Source: an uncultured Thermomicrobia bacterium (GTDB taxonomy: Bacteria; Chloroflexota; Chloroflexia; Thermomicrobiales; JALYUS01). Taken from it: a stretch of DNA of 64,000 nucleotides. The notes under the pieces are model-generated. The model was not told where the DNA came from and made no database searches. It saw only the letters and a program-made list of their open reading frames with translations. Made by a program: the position numbers and the translations under genes. The stretch is from contig CALBSO010000095.1 of the NCBI GenBank assembly GCA_937968015.1, forward strand, positions 10,302 through 74,301, read 5' to 3'. Of this stretch, positions 3,740 through 56,032 are shown piece after piece (position 1 is the stretch's first letter; every line of letters begins with the position of its first letter).

Positions 3740-3855
3740 CGCGCGTGATGCCTTCCTCTTGGCGGATCGTTCTATCGGCGTCCAATAAGACGCCGCCCTC
3801 CGTCAGTATACCGTGCGAGGAAATCCATGCCATGCTCTTGCTCTGACATCACTAT

Positions 3856-5841
3856 TCATCGCGCATCGCCGATGCCGTCCACGGCGTCGGGATTTTCGAG
3901 GGCGGTGATGTCGCCGAGTGGCAGGTTGAGATAGCGTGCTCGGATAACACGGCGCATCACTTTCGCATTGCGCGTCTTCGGCAGATCGCCGACGAACTTG
4001 ACCGCCTCCGGCTTGAGCGATTTGCCGAGTTGGTCGGTGATCGTGGATTCGATTGCTGCGCGGAGCGGTTCGCTCGGTTCGTGCCCCGGCCGGAGGACGA
4101 CGAAGGCGACGATCGTCTCACCCTTGATGTCGTGCGGGATGCTGATCGCTGCTGCCTCCTGCACCGCCGGGTGAGAGACCGCCGCCGACTCGATCTCCGC
4201 CGGGCCGACGCGCTTGCCCGCGACTTTAATCGTGTCGTCCGAGCGACCGAGGATGTACCAGAAGCCGTCCGCGTCAATGCGCGCGAAGTCGCCATGCACC
4301 CAGAGGCCAGGCATACGCGACCAATATGTCTCTTCGTACCGCTGCGTGTCCTGCCAGAAGCCGCGTGTCATCCCCGGCCACGCGCCGCGCAGCACAAGTT
4401 CGCCGACCGCGCCGCGCACCGGATTACCGGCATCGTCCACGACATCCACCGCCATTCCCGGCACTGGCGCGGAGAAGCAGGTTGGCTTGAGAGGAAGGAT
4501 GGTGAAACTGCTGAGGATGCCGCCGGAGATCTCCGTGCCGCCGGAGTAGTTGATGATCGGGCAACGGCCGCCGCCGATCGTATCGAAGAACCATTGCCAT
4601 GGCCCTGGGTTCCACGCCTCGCCGCTGGAACCGAGCACCCGGAGGGAAGAGAGATCGTGTTTTCGCGGCCACTCGTCTCCCTTCGCCATCAGCGCGCGGA
4701 CGACGGTTGGTGCGACTCCGCAAACGGTGATCCGGTACTTCTCGATCAGCGACCAGAGGCGATCCGGCTCCGGCCAGTCCGGCGTACCCTCGAAGAGGAC
4801 GAGCGTCGCGCCGAGGGTCAGCGTGCCGGTGATTGCCCACGGGCCCATCATCCAGCCGAGGTCCGTGAACCAGAGCAGCGTGTCGTCTTCCTGCACATCG
4901 AAGCAGTGCGCGAGGTCCTGCGTCGCCTTGATCGGGAAGCCATCGTGCGTGTGCAAGGCGCCCTTCGGCCTGCCGGTCGTGCCGGAGGTATAGATAATCA
5001 TGTACGGGTCCTCGGCGTCTGTCCGCTCCGTCTCCCGCTCCGGCGACTGCCGCGGAACGATCTCGTGCCACCAATGGTCACGGCCCGGCGTGAACGGAAC
5101 CTCGCTACCCGTCCGTGGGAAGACGATCACCGATTCCACTGTATCCACGCCGGCGATCGCCGCATCCGCTGTCTCCTTGAGCGGCACGATTTTGCCCCGG
5201 CGATAGAAACCATCCACGGTAATCAGCGCTTTCGCGCCCGCGTCCTTGAGTCGCGTCGCGACGGATTCCGCGCCGTAGCCGGAGAAGATCGGGATGTAGA
5301 TCGCACCGAGTTTCGAGACAGCAAAGGTCGCGATCGCCGTCTCTGGCAGCATCGGCATGAAGATGCCGACGCGGTCGCCCTTGCCGACGCCAAGCGCCGC
5401 GAGCGTGCCCGCCAGTTGATTGGTTTGCTCCCAGAGTGCGTGGTAGGTTAGGTGGCGGGTCGCGCCGTCGTCGCCCTCCCAGATCACCGCGGTTTTCGCG
5501 GCATGTGCGCCGGTCGCGTGCTTATCGAGCGCGTTATGGACGTAGTTGTACTGCCCGCCGGGGAACCACGTCGCCCACGGAACGCCACGCGACAGGTCCA
5601 CCACGGCGTCGTATGGGCGGTAGAATTGGAGATCGAGATCCTTCACCGTCGCATCCCAGAACCATGACACATCATCCGCCGCGCGCATCAGGAGTTCTTC
5701 AAACGATGCGATGCCCTCGCGCGCCATGAAACGGCACAACCGGCTCTGCTTCAAATACGCGTCGCTTGGACGCCAGACGATCTCGGCGTCGCCGGAATCG
5801 TGTCCGACCGGCATCGCGCCCGCCACTTCGCTTCGCGCCAT
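3856..5841 (-). CDS. AMP-forming acetyl/acyl-CoA synthetase family protein
   Basis: AMP-binding signature IIYTSGTTGRPKG; ACS-like N-terminus. Start chosen at MARSEV (5841) because a GGAGGAAAAG RBS precedes it. Confidence 0.9.
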   Translation of the reverse strand: MARSEVAGAMPVGHDSGDAEIVWRPSDAYLKQSRLCRFMAREGIASFEELLMRAADDVSWFWDATVKDLDLQFYRPYDAVVDLSRGVPWATWFPGGQYNYVHNALDKHATGAHAAKTAVIWEGDDGATRHLTYHALWEQTNQLAGTLAALGVGKGDRVGIFMPMLPETAIATFAVSKLGAIYIPIFSGYGAESVATRLKDAGAKALITVDGFYRRGKIVPLKETADAAIAGVDTVESVIVFPRTGSEVPFTPGRDHWWHEIVPRQSPERETERTDAEDPYMIIYTSGTTGRPKGALHTHDGFPIKATQDLAHCFDVQEDDTLLWFTDLGWMMGPWAITGTLTLGATLVLFEGTPDWPEPDRLWSLIEKYRITVCGVAPTVVRALMAKGDEWPRKHDLSSLRVLGSSGEAWNPGPWQWFFDTIGGGRCPIINYSGGTEISGGILSSFTILPLKPTCFSAPVPGMAVDVVDDAGNPVRGAVGELVLRGAWPGMTRGFWQDTQRYEETYWSRMPGLWVHGDFARIDADGFWYILGRSDDTIKVAGKRVGPAEIESAAVSHPAVQEAAAISIPHDIKGETIVAFVVLRPGHEPSEPLRAAIESTITDQLGKSLKPEAVKFVGDLPKTRNAKVMRRVIRARYLNLPLGDITALENPDAVDGIGDAR

Positions 5842-35177: not shown

Positions 35178-35294
35178 GTGCCTGCTCCGCCGTCGCCATC
35201 AGATGGATATGACATTCGTGTCACTGCCCGGCCTCAGCAGCATGACTTGGCGGGCAGGCAACGTCTCTGCGGATTTTTCTTGCAATAGAAGGGA

Positions 35295-35339
35295 TGGAGC
35301 CCTGAATCGGACTTGAACCGATGACCTCATTCTTACCAA
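35295..35339 (-). repeat. attL: displaced copy of the 3' 45 nt of tRNA-Thr(GGU)
   Basis: It is identical to 55957-56001 (TGGAGCCCTGAATCGGACTTGAACCGATGACCTCATTCTTACCAA). Diverged tRNA-like sequence continues to ~35372. Confidence 0.85.
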
Positions 35340-35733: not shown

Positions 35734-36717
35734 ATGGGAAGGATTGAAGAGACTCGCCGGGTTTCCCGTCTGCTTGATATGGCGTGGCGCATCGCCGCCG
35801 CTCCCCGCCAGTGGACGCGGCGACGACTGGCTGAACAGTACGAGGTGAGCGAGCGCCAGATCACGAATGACCTCACACTGATGCGGCAGGGCCTTCATTG
35901 GCAGGTGACAACTTGCCACACCGGCTATTATTTCGATCCCATCCCCGCCATCCCCGGTGTGCAATTCACCTTACCCGAGGCACTCGCCCTTCTCCTCGCC
36001 ATGCGTGCAAGCATGGCACTCCCCGGCATCGCCTCGGTCGAACTGACGTCAGCAATTCTCCGTCTTGCGTCGCTTGTGCCGCCGCAAATCCAGGCGCTTG
36101 TCACGCTTCCGGACTCGCCACCATCACCACGGGAACACACCCTTCGTACACTGCAACTCGCTCTCGGTCAGCGCCGCCGTGTCCATCTGACCTATCAGGC
36201 CGCGTCGCATGGCGCTGAGATCACCGAGCGTGATTTCGACCCGTACGCGATCTTTCCCTATGGCCGCTCGTGGCATGTGATCGGCTACTGCCATCTGCGT
36301 CGCGCCATCCGCGATTTCAAGGCGGATCGCATCGCCGCCGTCGCCCCACGCACGAGCCTCTACGAGATTCCGTCCGATTTCACGGTCGCCGATTTCCTTA
36401 ATGAAGGGTGGGGGTTGATGCGCGATACCGGTGAACCCGCCGAGGAGGTGGTATTGCGCTTTTCCGCACTCGCCGGCCGCTGGGTGCGGGAGGAGCGCTG
36501 GCACACGACGCAGGAGATCACCGACGAAGCAGACGGCCGGGTGTGCTTCCGCGTCCATGTGCCGGTCACGCCGGAATTCCGCCATTGGGTTTTCCATTAC
36601 GGCAGCGAAGTCGAAGTCCTCGCCCCTCTGTCCCTCCGCGACTGGATGAGGGCAGAGGCTGAAGTCGTCGCAATGCAATATCGGCGTACGATTGGAGGGA
36701 ACAGTAATGGGGTGTAG
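35734..36717 (+). CDS. WYL-domain transcriptional regulator (HTH-WYL-WCX)
   Basis: N-terminal HTH (RRLAEQYEVSERQITNDLTLM). WYL core (YGRSWHVIGYCHLRRAIRDFKADRI). Confidence 0.85.
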   Translation: MGRIEETRRVSRLLDMAWRIAAAPRQWTRRRLAEQYEVSERQITNDLTLMRQGLHWQVTTCHTGYYFDPIPAIPGVQFTLPEALALLLAMRASMALPGIASVELTSAILRLASLVPPQIQALVTLPDSPPSPREHTLRTLQLALGQRRRVHLTYQAASHGAEITERDFDPYAIFPYGRSWHVIGYCHLRRAIRDFKADRIAAVAPRTSLYEIPSDFTVADFLNEGWGLMRDTGEPAEEVVLRFSALAGRWVREERWHTTQEITDEADGRVCFRVHVPVTPEFRHWVFHYGSEVEVLAPLSLRDWMRAEAEVVAMQYRRTIGGNSNGV

Positions 36718-36833
36718 ACGTGCCCAAGCGAAAGACGATTTCGGACTAACGGTGTCGCTCATTGCTCCGTGGTATTATCCTCTCAGACGGGCGGAAAGGG
36801 GTCGCCAGAATCTGCGGCAAAATCCTGTGCGCG

Positions 36834-36910
36834 AACTTCTCTACATTTGTAGAGGTGAACCGTCTCTTGCGATCGCGCGCGTAGCGTCCTCGCGTATGCG
36901 GGGGAACAGG
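36834..36910 (+). CRISPR. Degenerate mini-CRISPR: psiR1 - 20-nt spacer-like segment - psiR2 (CreA/CreR-like)
   Basis: psiR1 (36834-36862) keeps the GGTGAACCG 3' end and has a compensated stem, CTCTAC/GTAGAG in place of CCCCGC/GCGGGG. psiR2 (36883-36910) matches 18/22 of the first 22 repeat positions and retains the hairpin. The spacer-like segment is TCTCTTGCGATCGCGCGCGT. Confidence 0.6.
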
Positions 36911-36960
36911 CAAAGCCGCCTCGTGCCCGAAACCTGGTACGAGGCGGCTTTGCCTGTTTT
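36905..36960 (+). terminator. Strong stem-loop terminator right after psiR2
   Basis: 20-bp perfect stem AACAGGCAAAGCCGCCTCGT/ACGAGGCGGCTTTGCCTGTT, ending in a T-run (TTTTG). Confidence 0.6.
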
Positions 36961-36984
36961 GTCAAATGCGTACCGATAAATCTT

Positions 36985-37001
36985 GCGATCGCGAGAGACT
37001 T
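36985..37001 (-). promoter_or_regulatory. Predicted Cascade target of the psi-spacer: AAG PAM + 14-nt protospacer
   Basis: The minus strand reads 5'-AAG|TCTCTCGCGATCGC. It matches psi-spacer positions 1-5 and 7-14 and mismatches only at position 6. The PAM lies 10 bp upstream of the -35 hexamer at 37012. Confidence 0.55.
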
Positions 37002-37011
37002 TGCAAAAACA

Positions 37012-37040
37012 TTGACAAGGAAAACTCGGCACGTTAGAGT
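37012..37040 (+). promoter_or_regulatory. Near-consensus sigma70-type promoter TTGACA-17-TAGAGT
   Basis: The hexamers and 17-bp spacer are read directly. It points toward the structured RNA and cas3. Confidence 0.55.
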
Positions 37041-37046
37041 GGTAGC

Positions 37047-37215
37047 GTGTCCACCGATATACCGGTCCGATCCCGCCTGCCAGCATGGAGGGCCAGTATA
37101 TCGGGAGGACACTGAGAAACGTTGACCGGGTGCCTGACCGGTAAGGGTAGACCCTGCCAAGGTCACGGCGTACTGGCTGTATCAGTACGAGCGGGTTCGA
37201 TTCCCGCCCCGGTCT
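37047..37215 (+). ncRNA. Structured RNA / cas3 leader: 15-bp 5' hairpin domain followed by a tRNA-like domain
   Basis: GTGTCC-A-CCGATATAC (37047-37062) pairs with GTATATCGG-GA-GGACAC (37096-37112). The tRNA-like cloverleaf spans 37124-37215. No match to tmRNA, SRP or RNase P motifs was recognised. Confidence 0.4.
37124..37215 (+). ncRNA. tRNA-like element: Gly(GCC)-type anticodon arm, 25-nt variable arm, no encoded CCA
   Basis: 7-bp acceptor GACCGGG/CCCGGTC. D-arm CCTG-ACCGGTA-AGGG contains GG. The anticodon arm is AGACC-CTGCCAA-GGTCA. The long variable hairpin is GTACTG-GCTGTAT-CAGTAC. T-arm GCGGG-TTCGATT-CCCGC, discriminator U. The five genuine tRNAs in the window all encode CCA. Confidence 0.45.
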
Positions 37216-37321
37216 CTCTAGTATAGGAGAGCGCCGATTTGATGTCAAAGATAAATGGGGAATTTCCGTCGAAAAGTGTCGAAGGCTTCTCACGAGGATG
37301 CACAACGAAGGAGGGTGTTGG

Positions 37322-40219
37322 ATGCCACGTTTGTCGTTTTCGTCTCTAGTCCTGTGGGCGAAATCGCGTACTGGAGAGCAAGGCCCTCCATTCCACCCGT
37401 TACTCTTTCACCTGCTCGATGTTGCGGCGGTGACCCAAGCGATCTGGGATCGCGTGCTTTCACTGGCGGCGAAGCGGGCGATTGCGGCGGAACTCGGTCT
37501 CGGCACGAATGTCGCGGCAGCGCGATGGTGGGTCATCTTCCTCGCCGGGGCGCACGACATCGGCAAGGCATCACCCGCCTTCCAGTACATGAAGAACCAT
37601 GCCACAGACGAAGCGCAAAAGGCGTTGCACGAGCAACTCGGTGCCGCCAACCTTCCGAACACCCTGAAGCCGAATCAGACGCGGCACGGACCAATCAGCA
37701 CACTTATCCTCCAAGATGTCCTCGCAACGGCGGACTACGGCTGGTCCGCGCGGGATGCGGAGAACATCGCCACCGCGATTGGCGGACATCACGGCATCTT
37801 TCCTTCCAGCAGCCTACTTGGAGAACAAGATACCAAATATGGACGCGGCGAAAAGGGTGCGTGGGACACCGTTCAGCGCGAATTGCTTGCGATGCTCGCC
37901 GATCTGCTCGGTGGGGTACCGGAGCGGGTTCCGCAGGGCGTGACCACTGCGGCGGCGATGACCATTGCGGGTCTCGTCTCGGTGGCGGACTGGATCGGCT
38001 CGGACGATGCCCGTTTCGCCTACGCGGAGCGCGGGGCGGACGGGCTACCAATCCTCTCGCCAGAGGCATACCGCGACCACGCGCGTCAGTGCGCGGCAAC
38101 GGCAATGAGCGATCTGCGCTGGCAATTGCCTACGGAATCGGGTGAAGCAAAACGCGAATTCCGGGCGATCTTTACGTTCGAGCAAAACCCGACGCAGCAG
38201 GCGGCGATTAACCGGGCGGCGGACATGCACGCGCCGGGGCTGACGATCATCGAGTCGCCGATGGGCGAGGGCAAGACCGAGGCAGCGCTCTATCTTATGG
38301 AACACGCGGCGCGTGTCCTCGGTGCGACGGGGTGCTACGTCGCGCTGCCCACGCAGGCGACGAGCAATCAGATGTTCGCGCGCGTGGTGGCATACTTGCA
38401 GACGCGCTTCCCCGCCTCCGCCGATATGGTGAATGTGCAACTGCTCCACGGGCATGCCGATCTTTCCGCTCTGTTCACCTTGCTCCGCAAAGCGGCGGAA
38501 ACCGGCACGACCACGAATGATGTCAACCCCACCGATGTTGATGGCGATGCGCATGCGAGCGTCGTCGCGGCGGAATGGTTCACCTACCGCAAGCGCGGTC
38601 TGCTCGCGCCCTTCGGCGTCGGCACCGTGGATCAGGCGCTGCTCGCGGTCTTGCAGACGCGCCACGTCTTCGTGCGGCTCTTCGGCCTCGCGCACAAGTG
38701 CGTCATCATTGATGAAGTTCATGCGTATGATACGTATATGACGACGTTGCTCAGCCGCCTGCTGATGTGGCTCGGCGCGCTCGGCTGCCCCGTCATCCTC
38801 CTCTCCGCCACTCTCCCGAACGGCCGTCGCGAGGACTTGTTGCGCGCGTACGCCGAGGGAACGGGCCATGCGCTCTCCGAATCCGCGCCGCTTCCTACCG
38901 CTCCGTACCCTCGCCTCTCGTGGGTAGAGGATGGTGTGCCCGGCGCGATGCCGATTGCCGGTGTGTCCCCACGCTCGACGAAGCGCGTGCACATCGTGTG
39001 GGTGGACGGCACTGTTCCGGAAGGCGAGGAAACGGACTTCCCGCTCGGTGAATTACTGCGGAAGAAACTAGCGCACGGCGGCTGCGTGGCGGTGATCTGC
39101 AACACGGTCGCGCGGGCGCAGGCCGTCTATCGCGCCCTGCGACGGTATTTCCCCGACGACGAACTCGCCTGCGATGCGGATGGGAACGCGATTGACGGTC
39201 ATCCCGTACTTGATCTCCTGCATTCCCGCTATCGTTTCATCGAGCGGCAGCAGCGGGAGCAGCGCACACTGCTGCGCTTCGGTAAGCCGGGGGACACAAT
39301 CGAGGTGGAGCAAGGCGGAGTGACGACGCAAAAGACCGTCAATCGCCCCAAGACTGCCGTGCTCGTCGCGACCCAGATCATCGAGCAGAGCCTCGATCTC
39401 GACTTCGATCTTATGGTGACGGACCTCGCCCCGGCAGACCTCGTCCTCCAGCGCCTCGGTCGCCTCTACCGCCACGACCGCCCCGACCGCCCAACCGGGG
39501 ACGATTGCACCCTCTACCTCTGTCGCCCTGTCTCGGTCAGCCCGGAGGGCGTGCCGACCTTCGAGCGGTACTTTGATTTGGTCTATGACGCGCATGTCCT
39601 CCTGCGCTCGTGGCTCACCCTCCATGACCGCACGGGGCTGTTCATTCCTGGCGACGTCGAGGAGATCATCGAGAATGTGTACGGTGCGCAAGATTGCCCG
39701 ACGATCTACCCGGACACGCTACGGGCGACGTGGCAGGAGACACGCGCTGAGAAGGAGAAGGGTGACGCGGGCGAAGCGGACGAGGCGCGGGATCGCCATC
39801 TAAAACGCCCCGACTTCAGCGGCGAACTGTGGCAGATCGTCCCCGCTCTCGGGATGGAGGAGGACGCGCCCGAACTCCACAAACAATTCCAAGCCCTCAC
39901 ACGATTGTCGGACGAGAGTGTGTCCGTTGTGCTGTTATACCCTCACGAGTGTGACGCGCTCCTCGACGGCAAACCGCCATCCTCGAAGCGCGTCCGGGAG
40001 ATATTGCGGCGATCGTTGACGGTCAGCACACGCCGTGCGGTCGCAATCATTCGAGAGGAGGGAGAGAAGCCGACCGCATGGAAGAAGGCTCGGTTCCTAC
40101 GGCATCACTACTGTGTGCGTCTCGAAGCCGATGGCACGTACGGGAGGGGGAAGAACCGATTGCGCTACGACAGGACCGAGGGTTTGACCGTGATACAGGG
40201 GAACGAGGTGATGCCCTGA
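37322..40219 (+). CDS. cas3: CRISPR-associated helicase/nuclease Cas3 (type I-E)
   Basis: HD domain (HLLDVAAV, GAHDIGKASPAFQ), DEAH box (VIIDEVH) and helicase C domain. GAAGGAGGG RBS before ATG 37322. Confidence 0.95.
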   Translation: MPRLSFSSLVLWAKSRTGEQGPPFHPLLFHLLDVAAVTQAIWDRVLSLAAKRAIAAELGLGTNVAAARWWVIFLAGAHDIGKASPAFQYMKNHATDEAQKALHEQLGAANLPNTLKPNQTRHGPISTLILQDVLATADYGWSARDAENIATAIGGHHGIFPSSSLLGEQDTKYGRGEKGAWDTVQRELLAMLADLLGGVPERVPQGVTTAAAMTIAGLVSVADWIGSDDARFAYAERGADGLPILSPEAYRDHARQCAATAMSDLRWQLPTESGEAKREFRAIFTFEQNPTQQAAINRAADMHAPGLTIIESPMGEGKTEAALYLMEHAARVLGATGCYVALPTQATSNQMFARVVAYLQTRFPASADMVNVQLLHGHADLSALFTLLRKAAETGTTTNDVNPTDVDGDAHASVVAAEWFTYRKRGLLAPFGVGTVDQALLAVLQTRHVFVRLFGLAHKCVIIDEVHAYDTYMTTLLSRLLMWLGALGCPVILLSATLPNGRREDLLRAYAEGTGHALSESAPLPTAPYPRLSWVEDGVPGAMPIAGVSPRSTKRVHIVWVDGTVPEGEETDFPLGELLRKKLAHGGCVAVICNTVARAQAVYRALRRYFPDDELACDADGNAIDGHPVLDLLHSRYRFIERQQREQRTLLRFGKPGDTIEVEQGGVTTQKTVNRPKTAVLVATQIIEQSLDLDFDLMVTDLAPADLVLQRLGRLYRHDRPDRPTGDDCTLYLCRPVSVSPEGVPTFERYFDLVYDAHVLLRSWLTLHDRTGLFIPGDVEEIIENVYGAQDCPTIYPDTLRATWQETRAEKEKGDAGEADEARDRHLKRPDFSGELWQIVPALGMEEDAPELHKQFQALTRLSDESVSVVLLYPHECDALLDGKPPSSKRVREILRRSLTVSTRRAVAIIREEGEKPTAWKKARFLRHHYCVRLEADGTYGRGKNRLRYDRTEGLTVIQGNEVMP

Positions 40220-46401: not shown

Positions 46402-48992
46402 ATCGTCCCCGCGCACGCGGGGGTGAACCGGGCAAACCGCACCTCAACGCGCTCGCGGCGCAATCGTCCCCGCGCACGCGGGGGTGAACCGTCGTCCATC
46501 CCCGCTTCGTCCGCCCAGACCGCATCGTCCCCGCGCACGCGGGGGTGAACCGTGACGAAGTGGAATGAGGCGCTGGATACGATCATCGTCCCCGCGCACG
46601 CGGGGGTGAACCGTAGGCGGCGGTCTCGCTCGGTGTGGACGCGGGATCGTCCCCGCGCACGCGGGGGTGAACCGATGCTGCCGATGGGGGCGCGGATGAC
46701 GCGATCATCGTCCCCGCGCACGCGGGGGTGAACCGCACTACGACGAGGTACAGAAGGCCGCGACCGCATCGTCCCCGCGCACGCGGGGGTGAACCGGTCG
46801 CGTTGTCATCGTACTGTTCGGGCAGCGAATCGTCCCCGCGCACGCGGGGGTGAACCGTCGCGCGGCACACACCGGAGGATTTGCGCGCTATCGTCCCCGC
46901 GCACGCGGGGGTGAACCGGCCCGCGAATGGGGGACTCTCGATTGAGAGATATCGTCCCCGCGCACGCGGGGGTGAACCGTAGGACGGTTTCAACTCAACG
47001 AGAACCGCGCGATCGTCCCCGCGCACGCGGGGGTGAACCGTTCGCGCCCCGCCCGCCCTGAATGGCATTCGCATCGTCCCCGCGCACGCGGGGGTGAACC
47101 GCGTCATGAGGATCGCCGCCTGGCGTTTGGTGAATCGTCCCCGCGCACGCGGGGGTGAACCGATCGCGGTCGAGCGAGCGTGTGCGGTTGCGGGATCGTC
47201 CCCGCGCACGCGGGGGTGAACCGAGTTGGCTGAATATCTCGGAGTAAAGAGCGTCATCGTCCCCGCGCACGCGGGGGTGAACCGGCAATGGCGGAGATGG
47301 CGGAGTACCGCACGAAATCGTCCCCGCGCACGCGGGGGTGAACCGGCCACCCTCGCGGATAAGGTGCGCGCGCTCGAATCGTCCCCGCGCACGCGGGGGT
47401 GAACCGGAATGGCAGATCACGCAAGCGGCGCAATATCGATCGTCCCCGCGCACGCGGGGGTGAACCGAGTAAGATAGTCATATAGTCAAGCGACTACACA
47501 TCGTCCCCGCGCACGCGGGGGTGAACCGTTGGCGTCGGGCTGCGTCCAGTCGAGCACCTTATCGTCCCCGCGCACGCGGGGGTGAACCGGAAACCGGCGT
47601 GTGAGTATCACTATCGGCATCATCGTCCCCGCGCACGCGGGGGTGAACCGTCGTTGGGCGACCGGCGAGAGGAGCAATGGGAATCGTCCCCGCGCACGCG
47701 GGGGTGAACCGGGGAACAGGGATGAACCACTTCACCGATTGCAATCGTCCCCGCGCACGCGGGGGTGAACCGGCGAGGCCGTCCAGACTCGCCTTGGTTT
47801 CGAGATCGTCCCCGCGCACGCGGGGGTGAACCGATCGCGCGGTGCTGCCAGTGATGCACCATCGCATCGTCCCCGCGCACGCGGGGGTGAACCGGGGGCA
47901 ATCAACGCGGCGGTCGTGCAAATGATATCGTCCCCGCGCACGCGGGGGTGAACCGCCCAAGCCAATCAGGTCGGCGTCCGTCACCGAATCGTCCCCGCGC
48001 ACGCGGGGGTGAACCGTAGGCCAACCCGTTACTCGTCTGGTGGATGGCATCGTCCCCGCGCACGCGGGGGTGAACCGTCCGGGTACTGCGCCGCGCCCAG
48101 TGTGTTCGCATCGTCCCCGCGCACGCGGGGGTGAACCGTCGTGCGGCACACGAACGGGAACGTCCTCATAATCGTCCCCGCGCACGCGGGGGTGAACCGA
48201 GCAGCCCCGCCGCCAGAAACGCCAGTCCCGGATCGTCCCCGCGCACGCGGGGGTGAACCGAGATCGCCGCCCTCCGCGCTACTGTCGTCGCGATCGTCCC
48301 CGCGCACGCGGGGGTGAACCGAGCTTGCGCATGTTCGCGGACCGTCTCGAGGTATCGTCCCCGCGCACGCGGGGGTGAACCGACCAGTTAGTCAATTGGA
48401 CACCAGATAGCGGCATCGTCCCCGCGCACGCGGGGGTGAACCGTATGAGGCCGATCAATCACAACGAGTTATGATATCGTCCCCGCGCACGCGGGGGTGA
48501 ACCGGACATCGGTTACGCTCCTCCCGCCGCTGCCTGATCGTCCCCGCGCACGCGGGGGTGAACCGACCGGCACGTTCAACTGGCGCGAGGCGAACACATC
48601 GTCCCCGCGCACGCGGGGGTGAACCGTGGAAGATGAGCGGGGGACCGTCGAAAGAAAAATCGTCCCCGCGCACGCGGGGGTGAACCGGGAACGAGATTGG
48701 CATCGCACAAGATCAGTTGATCGTCCCCGCGCACGCGGGGGTGAACCGCACGAGGCGATCATGACGCCTGAGCAGATTGAATCGTCCCCGCGCACGCGGG
48801 GGTGAACCGAATGGCCGAACTTCGACCCGCACGGCAAGGCGATCGTCCCCGCGCACGCGGGGGTGAACCGTGGTTGCCATCGGCAACATGAAACGCCTGG
48901 AGATCGTCCCCGCGCACGCGGGGGTGAACCGGGGAAGGATACGCTCCCTGAGGTGATTGCGCGATCGTCCCCGCGCACGCAGGGGTGAACCG
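46402..48992 (+). CRISPR. Type I-E CRISPR array: 43 x 29-bp repeats (ATCGTCCCCGCGCACGCGGGGGTGAACCG), 42 x 32-bp spacers
   Basis: The repeat starts I spot-checked (46402, 46463, 47439, 47500, 48720, 48964) fit a strict 61-bp period, and 48964-46402 equals 42 x 61. The last repeat (48964-48992) carries a G>A change. Orientation follows from the ...AACCG 3' end and the distal degenerate repeat. Confidence 0.97.
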
Positions 48993-49127
48993 GCGGGGGA
49001 AGCAGCGAACCGAGATCATCGCCACGGTATGTAAGTGTAGCCTGACGTAATATAGTGCGATGTCAGGCGAATCTGATGTCAGCGTGTCAACGGCAATAAA
49101 TACGGCCGCCAAGCCGTAGCCTGCGCT

Positions 49128-50408
49128 TCAGTAGCCTCGATCCCAAGTGCCGATGCCAATCTCCGCACGCGCCGCCACGAAGAGCGGATCCTCGACAAGT
49201 TCCCATCGTTCCACGCCCTCCAAGATATTTGTGACCGCCCACACGAGTGCGTCAAGGCGATCCGGGCTGCTCCCGCTGGCGGGTGTCCACGTCGTCAGTT
49301 GATCTTCCAGTTCGAGAAGCGGGCGCACATGCCACGCGCGCCGCTGCTCGTATAGACTTGCGACCGGCTCCGCGCGCGTCAGTTTTCCCCGCGATGCATG
49401 CACAAGCGTTACGGGCACGTAGGGGTTCACCGTCTGCAACACCGCCGCCACCATCGCACCGCCTTGATTCGCTTCCGCGACGATCCGATCTCCGCCATGC
49501 GCCGCGAGTGCCGCGATTGCTTGTCGCGCCCAGCCATCCGGGGTGTAGCGTCCGCTGCGGTCATCAAGGACGTACACCGCGCCGTCCACACCGAGACCGA
49601 CGACCACGATCCCCGTTTCGTCGGACTCCTCGCCGCTGCTTACCGCTGGATCAACGCCGACGACGACGCGCACGAGACCGGGGGGTGATCGACGCTGGTC
49701 GAACATCGCGCGCTGCCACAACGCGCCGGGCACATCTTCAAGCAGTTCGCCGTCCAGTTCCTGCCGTCCAAGCCGCGTCCCCTGATACCGCTTGACGATC
49801 TGATCGAGGAAGGCCGGGGCAAGGTTCGCGGCATTCTCGCCCGTTGAGCCGCGCGTCACCGCCGTCGTTGGCGCATTGAGTAGGTCACGCACGAGGCGCA
49901 CGGGCCGGGGAGTTGTCGTGACGATCTGGCGCGGATCAGCACCGAGACGTAGGCCAAGTTGTAACTGATCCCAGGCGTCGGGAAACCGCCACGCCGCGAG
50001 TTCGTCCGCCCAGGCGCAGTCATGTTGCGGGCCGCGTAGCCGGTCGGGTTCGTCAGCGCTGAACGTTGTCGCGATCGCACCGTTCGGCCACGTTAACCGA
50101 CGCTTCGAGGGTTCGTAGATGGGCCGTGCGTGGTTGGGAGAGATGGACAAGATGCCGCTGGTTCCTTCTACCATTACATCGCGCACATCCGCTGCGGTCG
50201 GGCCAACGAGGGCAACGCGCCGCGCCGTGCCCTGTTCCACCTGTGCGCGCACCCACTCCGCGCCCGTGCGGGTTTTGCCCCAACCGCGTCCCGCGAGGAC
50301 AAGCCACGTTCTCCAGTCGCCGGGGGGCGGCAGTTGGTTCGGGCGGGCGATCCGCTCCCAATCCCCGCGTGGATCGAGCGCGGCAGCGAGACTAGCCGCG
50401 AGATTCAT
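49128..50408 (-). CDS. Phage terminase large subunit-like protein
   Basis: Walker-A-like motif LAGRGWGKT and a C-terminal RNaseH-like nuclease region. Start at MNLAAS overlaps the upstream gene by 17 nt. Confidence 0.8.
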   Translation of the reverse strand: MNLAASLAAALDPRGDWERIARPNQLPPPGDWRTWLVLAGRGWGKTRTGAEWVRAQVEQGTARRVALVGPTAADVRDVMVEGTSGILSISPNHARPIYEPSKRRLTWPNGAIATTFSADEPDRLRGPQHDCAWADELAAWRFPDAWDQLQLGLRLGADPRQIVTTTPRPVRLVRDLLNAPTTAVTRGSTGENAANLAPAFLDQIVKRYQGTRLGRQELDGELLEDVPGALWQRAMFDQRRSPPGLVRVVVGVDPAVSSGEESDETGIVVVGLGVDGAVYVLDDRSGRYTPDGWARQAIAALAAHGGDRIVAEANQGGAMVAAVLQTVNPYVPVTLVHASRGKLTRAEPVASLYEQRRAWHVRPLLELEDQLTTWTPASGSSPDRLDALVWAVTNILEGVERWELVEDPLFVAARAEIGIGTWDRGY

Positions 50409-50889
50409 TTGTCGCCTCCAATGCGGTGAGCCGGTGTGCGACGGCGGCGCGGGCATCTGGAAATGGGCGCAAGGCTTCGACGATCACCGCCTGCACCCGC
50501 TGCCATTCCGGGCTAATAAGGATGTTCACCGTGCTGGCGTCTTGTAGTTCGCCCAGGAGTTTCGCCTGCATCTCAATCTGGCGCTGGATGCGGTCTATCG
50601 CCTTAAGCGCCAGGTGCGCATCGTCGCGTTCCCGCGCCTCGGAGAGAATGGCAAGGCTCTCGGCATTGACGCGCGCCAGTTGCGCCACGACATCGAGCGC
50701 ATGGGCCGCGTCGCCCACCTCCTTTGCGGCGGCGAGCGCTGCGGGCAGATGCCGGTCCCGATGGCGGGCGAGCGCGTCCTCGGAAACGCGGTATAGCGCG
50801 GAGAGTTCACGCAAGGGCTTCCCGGCGACAATCTCGCGATCTATCGCCTGTGGGTCTTTGTGGGCGCAGACTGTGCATGTTCGCGGCAT
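50392..50889 (-). CDS. Small terminase-like / HTH DNA-binding protein
   Basis: N-terminal CxxC plus HTH pattern (MPRTCTVCAHKD...LSALYRVSEDALARHRDRH) followed by coiled coil. It sits directly upstream of terL. Confidence 0.5.
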   Translation of the reverse strand: MPRTCTVCAHKDPQAIDREIVAGKPLRELSALYRVSEDALARHRDRHLPAALAAAKEVGDAAHALDVVAQLARVNAESLAILSEARERDDAHLALKAIDRIQRQIEMQAKLLGELQDASTVNILISPEWQRVQAVIVEALRPFPDARAAVAHRLTALEATNESRG

Positions 50890-50892
50890 GAA

Positions 50893-51204
50893 TTATCGCC
50901 GTCCCTTCTGATACTCGGCTTGGAGCCGCATGCAGTAATCGTGATCGTCCTCGTTGGCGCACTGCTCAATGTTAACAAGCCGCCCATACTCGCGTACGGC
51001 GCAGGGTACCCACACGATGGATGTCTGTCCCGCGCGCGGCAACCAGGTGTCAAGCACCCATCCCGGTAGGCTGACGAGGGCGAGTGCGTCCTCAATGGTC
51101 AGTGAGCGGAGCGGCACTCCTAGCCGCTCCTTGAAATCTTCCGCCGATGAGATGCCGCGCTCGGCACACGCGAGGTTGAAGGCATCGGTGGGACTAATCA
51201 TCAC
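50893..51204 (-). CDS. Hypothetical island protein
   Basis: 103-aa ORF tightly packed in the operon. No family recognised. Confidence 0.4.
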   Translation of the reverse strand: MMISPTDAFNLACAERGISSAEDFKERLGVPLRSLTIEDALALVSLPGWVLDTWLPRAGQTSIVWVPCAVREYGRLVNIEQCANEDDHDYCMRLQAEYQKGRR

Positions 51205-53605
51205 TCGCCGCCCTTGTGTGCGATGCCAAGTCGATCACATTGGAAGGGCGCAAAGAGCGAGGACGTATTTCAGCGTCATCAGCGTCATCGGCGTTAATTC
51301 CGGTGCCACCAATGGCTTCGACCCGTAACGCTGTTGTGACGCTGGTAACGCTCGCAGCGTCATCGGCGTAATCACCAGCGTTATGCTTGTTTCCCTTGCT
51401 GTCATTGGCTTCGTCGGTGTCCCGTAACGCTGATAACGCTCGCAACGCTGTTTTGTCCTGTTCTTCTTGATCGGGGACGCCGAGCCATTGCAGGTGAATT
51501 TCCCGCTGTTTCGGCCATTCAACGGACAGCCCGCCGGCGCGCAAGTTCGGCGCGGAGCGCTTCAACTCCCCTGATAGCCGGGCAGCATCCGCAGGCCACC
51601 CGCGCTGTTTGCGTGTGGCCTCATCCGTGTGTGCGACCAATTCTCCCAGGAGGTTCGTCGCCGTGCCGTGCCACTCGCCTTTGCTCTTTACGAAGGTAGT
51701 CAGTGCGGTTGCGAGCGGCGATGCCTCGACAGCCAACTCGTGCGCGCTCGCCCGATTGTGGCTGTATGCGCGAAGGAAGTCGTCGGCGGTGAAGCCGAGC
51801 GCGGGGGCGGCGGCTGAAACCCAGAGCGCGAAGTCCGCCATGCGGGGCATGGTGTGTAAACGGATCGTGGGAAGGTTGCGGATTGCCATACTAACAGCGG
51901 TCAAAAGCGCGCCGATGATCGCCCGGCGCTCCTGCTCGAATGCCAGCCAGAGTTCCGCTTCTGACTGACGCTGATCGTCGGGGATGCGCCGGAGATTGAG
52001 CGGTATCAGACGGTCCAACAGGTCGCTCCGCGTGACAAAATCGGTAATGCCGTTCACGATGACAGGGCGCTGTGCGTCGATGATCGTCTCCTCGTCATCG
52101 GCGTAGAGTTCCCGCGTCGCGAACCCGCCTCCCGTCGCCAAGCGGCAGAGGGCATCACTAAGCCAAATCGGGAGCGTACTCACATTGTCGAACGCCAGAT
52201 GCCAGCCGTTCGTTGCGGCGATCATCAGGTCTCGCTCATCGCGCGGCATCGTCCGTAGCGGAGCGGCGTTCGGATCGGTCAGGGACCGCATGATGCGGGC
52301 GAGGGTGGATTTCGCGCTACCTTGCTCTCCGAAGACGCCGAGTATCGGATACGGCCCGCGCGGGCGCATCGCCGCGACGAGCGCCGCGACGAAGAGAATC
52401 CAATCGGCATCAGTGAGATTGATGAAGCGACGGAGCGTTTTTAGCGTTCCACCGTTAGCGGGCGTCGGGAGTGCGAGCATCCCCCTGGTGCGACGGAAGC
52501 GTACCGTCGAGTCGGTGACGATCCGCCAGCCGTCCCGGTCGATCTCCACGACGCGCCATGCGGCATCACCGAGGTCGAGGTAAATCGCGCCGTCGTGTTC
52601 GGCTAGCCGGATGAAGACGGGATGTTCTTCCCCATCGTATCGGGCGCAACCAGCGAGGGCGCTAACGGCATCCTGTACCGCCTGCGTGTTCGCGCTCCCG
52701 CCATACTCGCGATAGTAGCGATGTGCAAGCCACTCCTTAAAGCCGCGCGATGTGAGCCGGTGCGTTTCCCGGTGGCTGCCATTTGTGATCGTTGCGTACG
52801 GGATGCCCTGCGGCGTGTGGAACAGTTCGGCCTCGTCCGCGAGCGCGATGAGGTCGTCCCGCTGCGGCGGGCGCTTGCTTTGGCGCGGCGATGTGTCGCC
52901 CGCCTCTTCGGTGGACGCGTCTCTCGCGAGGGTGTATATCTCCTCCATCATGTGACCAGCAAATAGGAAGTCATCAAGCCCTTGCTTTCCACCGTCAGCC
53001 GCAGGCGGTAGGAAGATGTGCCGGACGTGCGCCCCTCGCCGCGAGAGGAAAGCAGTTAGTCGGTCGAGCGCATTCTTGACGTTCGGGTTCGTCATCACGT
53101 CGGAGTCGAAACAGAGGGACACGTCACGGTCATTGAGGGCGATACTCTCCCAGTCGGGCAGCGCGACCGTGCCGCCCTGTTCGTTCTTGCCACGAAAGTT
53201 GAAGACGCCAAGAAGGGCGATGCAGTTTCCGCCCTGCGATACCGCCGCATCCCCCTTCTTTACTCCTTCCGTCACGATCAACGGCACGGAGGGATCGCCA
53301 AGAATCGGACGCACGGCGGGAGGGACATCAATCACCATGCGCGATCCGGCAGGCGTCTCATACTTGATCGGTTTTCCATCCCGTACGCGGGGATTGTCGG
53401 GCCGCAACTGGTAGAGCGCAACGCCACCGGCCACGCTATGCACTGGGACGAGTAGGGCCGGGACATAGGCCTGGTACTCTGCGAAACCGAGAGCGATGGC
53501 CTCCACCGGGTCGGTGATGCTGCGGTAGCCGCGTGCTGCCTGGACTTCGTTCGTGATGCCGGACGCGGCGAGTAGGTCCGCGTGCTGCGGGAGTAGCGAC
53601 GCCAT
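51194..53605 (-). CDS. Replication protein: Toprim-like (DUF3854-type) domain + P-loop primase/helicase-type ATPase
   Basis: The N-terminal region has VTEGVKKGDA and CFDSDV acidic motifs. There is a central Walker A (GEQGSAKST). Start at MASLLPQH. Confidence 0.7.
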   Translation of the reverse strand: MASLLPQHADLLAASGITNEVQAARGYRSITDPVEAIALGFAEYQAYVPALLVPVHSVAGGVALYQLRPDNPRVRDGKPIKYETPAGSRMVIDVPPAVRPILGDPSVPLIVTEGVKKGDAAVSQGGNCIALLGVFNFRGKNEQGGTVALPDWESIALNDRDVSLCFDSDVMTNPNVKNALDRLTAFLSRRGAHVRHIFLPPAADGGKQGLDDFLFAGHMMEEIYTLARDASTEEAGDTSPRQSKRPPQRDDLIALADEAELFHTPQGIPYATITNGSHRETHRLTSRGFKEWLAHRYYREYGGSANTQAVQDAVSALAGCARYDGEEHPVFIRLAEHDGAIYLDLGDAAWRVVEIDRDGWRIVTDSTVRFRRTRGMLALPTPANGGTLKTLRRFINLTDADWILFVAALVAAMRPRGPYPILGVFGEQGSAKSTLARIMRSLTDPNAAPLRTMPRDERDLMIAATNGWHLAFDNVSTLPIWLSDALCRLATGGGFATRELYADDEETIIDAQRPVIVNGITDFVTRSDLLDRLIPLNLRRIPDDQRQSEAELWLAFEQERRAIIGALLTAVSMAIRNLPTIRLHTMPRMADFALWVSAAAPALGFTADDFLRAYSHNRASAHELAVEASPLATALTTFVKSKGEWHGTATNLLGELVAHTDEATRKQRGWPADAARLSGELKRSAPNLRAGGLSVEWPKQREIHLQWLGVPDQEEQDKTALRALSALRDTDEANDSKGNKHNAGDYADDAASVTSVTTALRVEAIGGTGINADDADDAEIRPRSLRPSNVIDLASHTRAASDD

Positions 53606-53613
53606 CAACGCAC

Positions 53614-53916
53614 CTATCCTTCGAGTGCGCCCTGTGTAGCGCGAATATAGATAACAGCGAGCGTCAAGTAGCGGGCTGCCTCCCACTCGCCGTGGTAGCG
53701 AAGGCGATGTGCTTGGCGGTCGAGTTGGGCGACGATCTCAGCCAGGGGCATAGTCGGTTCGAGTGTAGCGGAGGGATTGAATACCGTTGTCGTGTGTTTC
53801 GGTTCGATGCAGACGAAGCGAAGGAGTTGTATATCTGACCTGGTTAGTGAGGTATAGCCTATCGCCGCCGAACTGCCTGCCGTTGTCCCGGCGGTTTCGG
53901 TATTATCGGGCTGCAT
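53614..53916 (-). CDS. Hypothetical island protein (start uncertain)
   Basis: ORF packed between neighbours, with a lower-GC 5' part. Confidence 0.35.
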   Translation of the reverse strand: MQPDNTETAGTTAGSSAAIGYTSLTRSDIQLLRFVCIEPKHTTTVFNPSATLEPTMPLAEIVAQLDRQAHRLRYHGEWEAARYLTLAVIYIRATQGALEG

Positions 53917-55855: not shown

Positions 55856-55956
55856 CGGTGCGTCTCCTTGTGGTTTTGTCCAGTTATCATCTGAACAAGC
55901 GGTGTGCCACAAAGAGTATATCACAGAACGGATGGTTTTGCTTGCTATAGAAAGGG

Positions 55957-56032
<76 letters not shown>

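Follow-up and report, generated by a model that had tools for sequence, protein, structure and literature searches.

The DNA analysed here, a 64,000-nucleotide (nt) window of contig CALBSO010000095.1 from an uncultured Thermomicrobia bacterium, carries a type I-E CRISPR-Cas locus (CRISPR, clusters of regularly interspaced short palindromic repeats). Between its WYL-WCX regulator gene and cas3 lies a compact cassette: a mini-CRISPR of two degenerate repeats, a predicted target site for Cascade, a promoter and a structured RNA that includes a 92-nt element shaped like a transfer RNA (tRNA). This element combines a glycine anticodon with a class-II body, and we tentatively propose that it is the conserved cargo RNA of the cassette. 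All coordinates are positions in the window, related loci are designated by L and a number, and all compared loci are metagenome-derived. The features of the locus are as follows (bp, base pairs; PAM, protospacer-adjacent motif):

35734-36717, plus strand: WYL-WCX regulator gene (Pfam WYL and WCX)
about 36746-37277, plus strand: cassette of ~530 bp with approximate bounds, from alignment of the window with L172, L091, L081, L087 and L085
36770-36778, plus strand: extended -10-like motif TGgTATTAT, read from the sequence, candidate promoter of the mini-CRISPR
36834-36862, plus strand: pseudo-repeat 1, AACTTCTCTACATTTGTAGAGGTGAACCG, from by-eye comparison with the array repeat ATCGTCCCCGCGCACGCGGGGGTGAACCG
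36863-36882, plus strand: pseudo-spacer of 20 nt, TCTCTTGCGATCGCGCGCGT
36883-36911, plus strand: pseudo-repeat 2, AGCGTCCTCGCGTATGCGGGGGAACAGGC, in register with the array repeat and running into the terminator hairpin
36908-36963, plus strand: intrinsic terminator, a 20-bp stem followed by GTTTTGTC, ending the WYL/mini-CRISPR transcript
36979-37001, minus strand: predicted Cascade site, PAM AAG at 37001-36999 and protospacer at 36998-36979
37012-37040, plus strand: sigma-70-type promoter TTGACA-17-TAGAGT, 10 of 12 consensus positions matched
37047-37112, plus strand: 5'-terminal hairpin with the invariant 21-nt apex CCCGCCUGCCAGCAUGGAGGG, from folding
37124-37215, plus strand: tRNA-shaped RNA of 92 nt with a class-II body, anticodon GCC at 37156-37158 and discriminator U at 37215
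37220-37248, minus strand: promoter-like TTGACA-17-TATACT, 11 of 12 consensus positions matched
37322-40219, plus strand: cas3 (Pfam), followed by cse1, cse2, cas7, cas5, cas6e, cas1 and cas2
46523-48993: CRISPR array with repeat ATCGTCCCCGCGCACGCGGGGGTGAACCG, from TRF

The cas3 start at 37322 is backed by an upstream GAAGGAGG motif and by alignment with L172, and the WYL-cas3 gap that houses the tRNA-like element measures 605 nt in the window.

A preliminary description of this DNA had proposed a 92-nt cloverleaf at 37124-37215, and both programs that we used find it: ARAGORN places a plus-strand tRNA-Gly(gcc) at 37124-37216, and in a permissive regional scan the Rfam tRNA model (RF00005, gathering cutoff 29 bits) matches 37124-37215 with 38.9 bits (E 1.8e-6). 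The ortholog of the element in locus L179 (2298-2389) is likewise called tRNA-Gly(gcc) by ARAGORN (2298-2390) and scores 36.1 bits with Rfam, so that by score the element belongs to RF00005. It was missed by a whole-window Rfam scan at default gathering thresholds, in which the window's other five tRNAs, all ordinary ones, reach 50.7-73.4 bits. Against shuffled sequences the fold of the element has z = -4.7. Specifically, a perfect 7-bp acceptor stem (GACCGGG/CCCGGUC) is followed by U8 and G9; the D stem has 3 bp plus G13.A22 and closes a loop, ACCGGUA, that includes GG; the anticodon stem has 4 bp plus A27.A43, with the loop CUGCCAA; the variable region of 25 nt contains a 6-bp stem (GUACUG/CAGUAC); and the T arm, GCGGG-UUCGAUU-CCCGC, leads to the discriminator U73. 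The acceptor, the GG of the D arm, the GCC anticodon loop, the long variable arm, the T arm and U73 had all been described before and are all present in the Rfam alignment, and it also holds that CCA is not encoded in the element, whereas the other five tRNAs of the window all end in CCA. Identification as transfer-messenger RNA (tmRNA), YrlA, tRNA-Sec or allo-tRNA was rejected: the helix is a canonical 7/5 one and there was no non-tRNA Rfam match at E <= 10, the architectures tested being a tag open reading frame (ORF) with pseudoknots, a Ro-binding stem, and acceptor/T helices of 8/5, 9/4, 8/4 or 9/3 bp.

Comparison with L179, whose Cas3 is 82% identical in protein sequence to that of the window, shows how unevenly the segments of the locus have diverged. 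The identities between the two are:

tRNA-like element: 95% (87 of 92 positions)
5' hairpin: 82%, with the 21-nt apex invariant
pseudo-repeats, spacer and target: 74-82%
four-fold degenerate sites of cas3: 68%
stretch before cas3: 59%
four-fold degenerate sites of the WYL gene: 41%
promoter spacer region: 41%
terminator: 40%
gap between terminator and target: 27%

With a neutral divergence of 32%, the probability of five or fewer changes in 92 positions is about 5e-10. The five changes in the tRNA-like element are U26C, A27G, C32U and two in the loop of the variable arm; none touches any of the 25 canonical pairs, and position 27.43 stays non-canonical despite A27G. The constraint thus extends beyond the acceptor and T arms to the anticodon arm with its GCC, to U73 and to the stem of the variable arm, so that strong purifying selection, as judged in silico, spans the whole tRNA-like body. 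Because the element is 95% identical where the four-fold sites of cas3 are 68% identical, and because its canonical pairs are intact, the comparison identifies it as a functional, selected RNA and not a relic.

The element does not conform to a single tRNA identity. A covariance model built from the window and L179 elements and run over ~1.1 Mb of sequence returned as nearest tRNAs two tRNA-Ser(UGA) (36.8 and 32.9 bits) and the tRNA-Tyr of the window (35.3 bits), and no class-I tRNA was among its matches there. Similarly, the tRNA-Ser(GCU) of locus L064 resembles the element in its D stem (3 bp with G13.A22) and in the start UGCC(U/A)GA, and its anticodon loop, CUGCUAA, differs from CUGCCAA by one base. 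BLAST identified no host tRNA as a parent of the element. Glycine tRNAs are recognised by U73, G1:C72, C2:G71, G3:C70, C35 and C36; the element has U73, G1:C72, C35 and C36 and lacks C2:G71 and G3:C70. The G73 of serine tRNAs and the A73 of leucine and tyrosine tRNAs are both absent, and to our knowledge a long variable arm does not occur in glycine tRNAs. By these comparisons the body and the anticodon are of different classes, and the charging synthetase, if any, is not readable from the sequence. The codons that an anticodon GCC reads, GGC and GGU, make up 63% of the glycine codons here.

Upstream of the tRNA-like element, the hairpin at 37047-37112 had been described as a 15-bp domain; it is real but larger, with ~24 pairs (-35.7 kcal/mol, z = -5.1). 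In L179 one two-sided and one one-sided change keep pairs of this hairpin, and four pairs are broken. Its apex (37072-37092) displays the loop CUGCCA (37077-37082), closed by GC/GC, and the anticodon loop of the tRNA-like element contains this hexamer too; the agreement could be chance, at a few per cent, or a second mimic of a GCC loop. A 19-codon mini-ORF at 37085-37144 had also been noted inside this RNA for codons expected to be rare. AGA (5 of 4117 codons) and AGG (12) are indeed rare here and ACA (29) is a minority threonine codon, but the ORF has no Shine-Dalgarno (SD) sequence or other ribosome-binding site before it and is frameshifted in L179, and hence is not a gene. The ATG at 37242 was rejected as a start codon, being ACG in L179.

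The first half of the cassette has the anatomy of a mini-CRISPR. Its extended -10-like motif lies ~55 nt 5' of pseudo-repeat 1 and is identical in L179, where the 12-mer GTGGTATTATC is unchanged within a segment otherwise 44% identical; counterparts are recognisable in the related loci L086 (TGGTATAGG) and L095 (TGGTACGAT), which suggests that the mini-CRISPR has a promoter of its own. The other cassettes conserve pseudo-repeat 1. Its 5'-handle (GTGAACCG) agrees with the array repeat at 8 of 8 positions, and its stem has been rebuilt as CTCTACA/TGTAGAG by two-sided changes that preserve pairing. The pseudo-spacer is 20 nt long in L179 and L086 as well and 21 nt in L095. These lengths compare with 32 nt for a full spacer, and the 12 nt by which the spacer is shorter correspond to two 6-nt Cascade segments.

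The pseudo-spacer matches the protospacer of the predicted Cascade site at positions 1-5, 7-14 and 17, and 10 nt separate the end of this site from the -35 box of the sense promoter. Across the four known versions of the cassette the seed of the pseudo-spacer differs and the target changes along with it, always beside an AAG PAM:

window: TCTCTtGCGATCGC
L179: TCTCTcGCGATcGCT against TCTCTgGCGATtGCT
L086: ATGTCGGTAA
L095: CCGCTcAATGA, plus a second site

Seed mismatches in L179 are confined to positions 6 and 12, which are positions that Cascade leaves unpaired. We regard this co-variation as good in silico evidence that guide and operator form a functional pair, and it bears out the earlier suggestion that the structured RNA lies downstream of a promoter abutting a predicted Cascade target. 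The second site in L095 is also flanked by AAG, and the two sites lie 25 bp apart.

The TTGACA/TAGAGT promoter that had been described lies at 37012-37040 with 17-nt spacing, and a transcript would start near 37047. It is the only plus-strand promoter-like site between the upstream terminator and cas3. TTGACA adjoins the PAM in the window, L086 and L095, and in L179 the -10 box and its distance to the hairpin are preserved. The terminator at 36908-36963, 5' of this promoter and called at 36908-36955, is the sole terminator-like site within 36500-37500; although its sequence is 40% identical in L179, a hairpin and T-run are still present there (z = -6.5). On this in silico evidence it cuts cas3 off from WYL transcription. 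In the same interval no terminator was found between the tRNA-like element and cas3, as had been stated before, and transcription from the sense promoter would read through into cas3. Because a terminator lies upstream of it and none before cas3, the sense promoter is likely to be the cas3-cascade promoter.

A second promoter-like sequence, on the minus strand at 37220-37248, would start a transcript at ~37213, the 3' edge of the tRNA-like element, and this transcript would run back across the element. Its counterpart in L179 (2395-2423) reads TTGACG-17-TATACT, with equal spacing and a spacer identical at 10 of 17 positions; kept hexamers around a diverged spacer are the pattern that one would expect of a real promoter. 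It was not seen in the L086 or L095 cassettes. On the minus strand beyond it, no terminator precedes the Cascade site or the mini-CRISPR, and there is no ORF with a ribosome-binding site.

Alignment with L172, which has no insert, marks ~36746-37277 as an insertion. Among the close relatives (Cas3 70-84% identical) WYL mostly abuts or overlaps cas3, leaving no room for such a cassette, and among the relatives compared a WYL-cas3 gap of 600-700 nt occurs only in the window, L179-181, L086/L176-178 and L095/L171; this comparison was made without P0003 and P0008, and further cassette copies may exist. The insertion is accordingly known in four versions, those of the window, L179/L180/L181, L086 and L095 (L176-178 are identical to L086 and L171 to L095, and add no variation), with a patchy, module-like distribution. 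All four follow one plan: a TGgTA-type extended -10, pseudo-repeat 1, a pseudo-spacer of 20-21 nt and pseudo-repeat 2, and then the terminator hairpin, the minus-strand AAG-flanked site directly 5' of a -35-like hexamer, a structured RNA and cas3. No further copy of any cassette segment was found in the window or the compared loci, and neither exact-pattern scans of viral contigs nor BLAST against phages and plasmids gave a match.

The cargo at the end of this plan varies. In the same slot (3830-3900) L086 has a 69-nt acceptor/T-arm element without an anticodon arm, whose acceptor GGGCUGG/CCAGCCC (7 bp, extendable to 9) and T arm GGGAG-UUCGAGU-CUCCC are followed by A73 and CCG (ACCG); its only Rfam match is a weak one to tRNA-Sec, at 19.7 bits where the cutoff is 47. 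L095 has a decayed copy of this type (2760-2829), ending in ACCA. The ends of these acceptor/T-arm elements are faintly tmRNA-like, but Rfam returned no match to tmRNA. The covariance model of the window and L179 elements revealed no hidden homolog in either cassette. An insert between the decayed copy and a minigene in L095 is a class-I tRNA of 74 nt that bears GCU, a serine anticodon (2829-2902, equal to L171 2546-2619; 59.3 bits). This tRNA is well formed, with G32, the T loop UCCGAGU and A73, and does not encode CCA. Natural GCU tRNAs are class II, so that body class and anticodon are, by sequence, mismatched in this tRNA too. The minigene (L086 3910-3938, L095 2626-2655) presents AGGAGG in a hairpin loop followed by AUG UCC UGA. 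Its block is conserved at 34 of 36 positions between L086 and L095, compared with 65% at the four-fold sites of cas3, and is the best-conserved segment between them; an extra A-U pair in the L095 hairpin looks compensatory. UCC is not rare in the codon usage here. We consider this minigene a candidate toxin of the L086 and L095 loci. Every homologous cassette therefore bears a tRNA-shaped element, while the translation-related cargos differ.

We propose, with a probability of roughly 0.4, that the tRNA-like element is the conserved cargo RNA, possibly a toxin, of a CRISPR-regulated cassette of the CreTA or CreR type, acting in trans as a tRNA mimic. CreTA systems, reported by Li et al. in 2021, are said to be CRISPR-regulated toxin-antitoxin RNA pairs of type I-B haloarchaea; CreR denotes mini-CRISPRs that guide Cascade as a repressor of cas genes. 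In the proposed scheme Cas6e would cut the mini-CRISPR transcript into a CRISPR RNA (crRNA)-like guide with the 20-nt pseudo-spacer, and Cascade loaded with it would sit on the AAG-flanked partial match 10 nt 5' of the -35 box and keep the promoter down, the partial pairing sparing the site from cleavage by Cas3. Were Cascade scarce, lost or blocked, the promoter would fire and yield a transcript beginning with the stable hairpin, continuing with the tRNA-shaped element and running on into cas3 and the Cascade genes. RNase P would cut at the 5' end of the element and an activity of the RNase Z type after U73, as we propose because CCA is not encoded, and an RNA of ~92 nt would be freed. With its serine/tyrosine-type body and glycine anticodon, this RNA could harm the translation apparatus in trans, either by mis-decoding the abundant GGC and GGU codons or by occupying tRNA-handling factors or ribosomes. 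Loss or inhibition of Cascade would thereby be penalised, as by an addiction or anti-anti-CRISPR module, and the same operator would autoregulate cas3 and the Cascade genes. In favour of this reading are the constraint on the entire body, the disagreement of anticodon and body in two unrelated cassette tRNAs, the patchy, module-like insertion and the exchange of cargos between cassettes, together with the toxicity of anticodon-swapped tRNA-Ser (PMC6125640) and the antisense promoter as a possible second brake.

The part of this proposal that goes furthest, a natural toxin that is itself a chimeric tRNA (a serine/tyrosine-type body with GCC) silenced by Cascade and a pseudo-crRNA, seems to us possible but doubtful. 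Variants of tRNA-Ser with foreign anticodons are toxic (PMC6125640). Released on loss of Cascade or on its block by an anti-CRISPR, the RNA might cause misincorporation at the most frequent glycine codons, or load onto ribosomes uncharged and mimic starvation. The conserved antisense promoter would fit a second brake on a dangerous RNA, perhaps through a cis-antisense transcript. The sister cargos, a class-I GCU tRNA and a two-codon minigene, would then belong to a family of interchangeable translation poisons guarding a mobile type I-E CRISPR-Cas island. The preliminary description had offered a CreT-like toxic RNA as one of its options. What stands of that option is a genuine tRNA-shaped RNA behind a mini-CRISPR target; the classical CreT hallmarks are absent and the mini-ORF is not conserved, and if there is a toxin it would be of another kind, the tRNA-like RNA itself.

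Several points weigh against the proposal of a trans-acting cargo. The window lacks the strong SD, start codon and consecutive rare codons of CreT RNAs. The sense promoter scores poorly in L179, L086 and L095, with a strong consensus match only in the window. Of the check on conservation and covariation that had been suggested earlier, the first half gave the 95% identity with L179, but the tRNA-like stems contain no compensatory change, so that the two independent copies found attest conservation and not covariation. Because the sense promoter probably drives cas3-cascade, plain autoregulation of the CreR type accounts for the operator, with no toxin needed, and a toxin co-transcribed with the cas genes would rise upon any Cas induction. 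U73, C35 and C36 are glycine identity elements, and the RNA might be charged with glycine and be harmless; conversely, U73, the short D loop, C10, C15, U26 and the mismatch at 27.43 make serylation and efficient decoding uncertain. Finally, the L086 element has no anticodon arm, and a function common to all cassettes would have to be independent of the anticodon.

Autoregulation alone is the main alternative, and we rate it somewhat below the proposal of a trans-acting cargo. Cascade with the pseudo-crRNA would repress the cas3-cascade promoter, and the element would be a processing or insulator module in cis: RNase P and RNase Z would excise it from the 275-nt leader, removing the 5' hairpin and defining the 5' end of the cas3 messenger RNA (mRNA), and the excised RNA would have no function of its own. 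Given the strong upstream terminator and the absence of one before cas3, cas3 would need the promoter at 37012-37040, and WYL and cas3 are contiguous in relatives without the insert. Toxin-free type I-E mini-arrays that target cas promoters are documented, and tRNA-mRNA co-transcripts are, as a matter of general knowledge, ordinary in bacteria. The cassette types share an acceptor/T-arm helix, the minimal substrate of tRNA-processing enzymes, and a U stands at position -1 of the element in both orthologs. A processing signal, which was another option of the preliminary description, fits the missing terminator and the logic of the operon, but leaves the frozen anticodon and variable arms unexplained: with 87 of 92 positions identical where neutral sites are 32-59% diverged, the constraint on the anticodon arm and the variable-arm stem appears to exceed the needs of a cis processing signal alone. 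Autoregulation also gives no role to the conserved antisense promoter. The distant loci speak against it as well, in that ARAGORN found no tRNA gene just upstream of cas3 on the same strand in any of the ~160 distant I-E loci listed from genomes and metagenomes (Cas3 35-50% identical; the metagenome part comprises the matches listed). A mini-CRISPR upstream of cas3 occurs in a few of these (L110/L109/L118 and L040/L113), and L110 and L040 have no convincing tRNA-like element there; under relaxed settings, most of what ARAGORN called in a few upstream regions was noise. In L110 the spacer of the mini-CRISPR has the full length of 32 nt, and two partial sites flanked by AAG lie on the plus strand.

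Alternatively, the element may be a benign special-purpose tRNA or mimic, close to the unusual or decoy tRNA that was the remaining option of the preliminary description. It might accept glycine as an additional tRNA or titrate, as a decoy or sponge, some factor that recognises the GCC loop, with its supply tied to Cascade. The conserved glycine elements U73, G1:C72, C35 and C36 would suit such an RNA, RNAs with many partners are typically conserved over their whole body, and the invariant apex of the 5' hairpin repeats the CUGCCA of the anticodon loop. We nonetheless judge it improbable: C2:G71 and G3:C70 are missing, the long variable arm is foreign to glycine tRNAs, the cassette encodes no partner factor, and there is no obvious reason why Cascade should repress a harmless tRNA in a patchily distributed cassette.

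More improbable still is that the functional transcript is an antisense RNA, or a sense-antisense switch, crossing the element, the plus-strand promoter and the Cascade site. In its favour, the minus-strand promoter comes closest to consensus in the region, and its hexamers and spacing are kept in L179 while the spacer has diverged; yet the tRNA model matches the plus strand only, the T loop, G18G19, U8/A14 and U33 all stand in the plus-strand sense, no such promoter is seen in L086 and L095, and the minus strand offers neither a terminator nor an ORF with a ribosome-binding site. That the element is a decaying pseudo-tRNA or a relic of an attachment site, without function, is hardly credible and was rejected, for although the island that carries the locus is integrated at a tRNA gene and the element scores 38.9 bits against 50-73 for genuine tRNAs, 95% ortholog identity with unchanged canonical pairs contrasts with at most 68% at neutral sites, and the attachment repeat of the island derives from a tRNA-Thr and lies elsewhere (35274-35339).

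This island, an integrative one of ~20.6 kb, carries the type I-E locus. Its ends are marked by a 66-nt direct repeat (94%) from the 3' region of tRNA-Thr(GGT), at 35274-35339 and 55936-56001, and metabolic genes lie to the left of the first copy. Between the copies are WYL, the cassette, cas3 to cas2, the array and a tyrosine integrase adjoining the tRNA, together with two further genes:

49128-50456, minus strand: terminase large subunit
51194-53686, minus strand: DUF3854 protein

Related loci (L083/L086 upstream of WYL, L081, L087, L179 and L173) are flanked by other defence or addiction genes, including AbiEi/AbiEii, a Gp49-HTH pair, a PIN/VapC-like gene, a RES domain protein and an integrase, and such neighbours are consistent with mobile defence islands.

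Mini-CRISPRs that make Cascade a repressor are known so far as autoregulators (CreR) or as antitoxins of mini-mRNA toxins (CreTA), and it would be new to find, as their cargo, a tRNA shape with almost every base conserved. In the literature we found nothing that links CreTA with a tRNA-like RNA and nothing that describes a tRNA-like element in the leader of a cas operon. If the toxin reading is true, this would be the first natural mis-wired tRNA used as a weapon of addiction or abortive infection, and a Cascade-switchable part for kill-switch designs; if the element serves processing only, the cas3 leader would still be self-repressed and tRNA-punctuated, and carried by an integrative island. 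In both cases the operator and the 190-nt RNA form a testable pair.

Comparison with known systems places the two halves of the cassette differently. CreTA modules are CRISPR-regulated toxin-antitoxin RNA pairs of type I-B haloarchaea (Cheng et al., 2021; PMC8501985), in which CreT RNAs are mini-mRNAs (SD, AUG, two rare codons and a stem-loop) that sequester a rare tRNA (PMC8501985). Like them, the cassette has a degenerate two-repeat mini-CRISPR inside a cas locus, with repeats that retain handle and stem for Cas6 processing, and its pseudo-spacer is complementary, in part, to a PAM-flanked site where the promoter of the neighbouring small RNA gene lies; it is likewise compact and patchily distributed, and its cargo is tied to tRNA biology. 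It differs in that the system is a bacterial type I-E one, the cargo is itself tRNA-shaped, has no conserved mini-ORF and is co-transcribed with cas3, and toxicity is here only hypothesised. Regulatory mini-arrays described for I-E and other type I systems lie by cas3 and match their targets in part, over 10-15 nt, beside an AAG PAM and with the sixth position free (bioRxiv 10.1101/2023.03.03.530964, 10.1101/2023.03.10.532045). Our cassette agrees with these CreR-like arrays in the AAG PAM, in ~14-15 matching seed nucleotides with the sixth position free, in a target that adjoins a probable cas promoter and in its place next to cas3. The described cases, however, target the cas8e (casA) promoter and have no structured cargo RNA, whereas the operator here controls a promoter upstream of cas3, the pseudo-spacer has only 20 nt, an antisense promoter is present, and a constrained hairpin and a conserved tRNA-like RNA stand in the transcript between operator and cas3.

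On the side of the cargo, tRNA-Ser with altered anticodons, whether engineered or natural, mistranslates (PMC6125640, PMC6827378). The element shares with the class-II tRNAs (Ser, Tyr, Leu) its long variable arm, a 3-bp D stem with G13.A22 and a canonical T loop, but has U73 where they have G73 or A73, and further departs from them in a D loop of smaller size, C10, C15, U26, the 27.43 mismatch, four unpaired bases 5' of the stem in its 25-nt variable region and the lack of an encoded CCA. As in tRNA-tufB operons and MALAT1 mascRNA, a tRNA shape forms part of a longer transcript and is not separated by a terminator from the gene that follows, and by analogy cutting by RNase P and RNase Z would be expected; those, however, are normal tRNAs or minimal mimics, whereas here the whole body is constrained, including an anticodon that does not match it. 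The AGGAGG and AUG UCC UGA of L086 and L095 resemble the two-codon minigenes of lambda bar and the design of CreT, and are absent from the window, while the acceptor/T-arm elements of the same two loci are like the tRNA-like domain of tmRNA in their ACCG and ACCA ends but lack G3:U70. Judged by these likenesses, the guide-operator half joins the known CreA/CreR kind as a new member, and the cargo is neither a CreT RNA nor an ordinary tRNA of any single identity.

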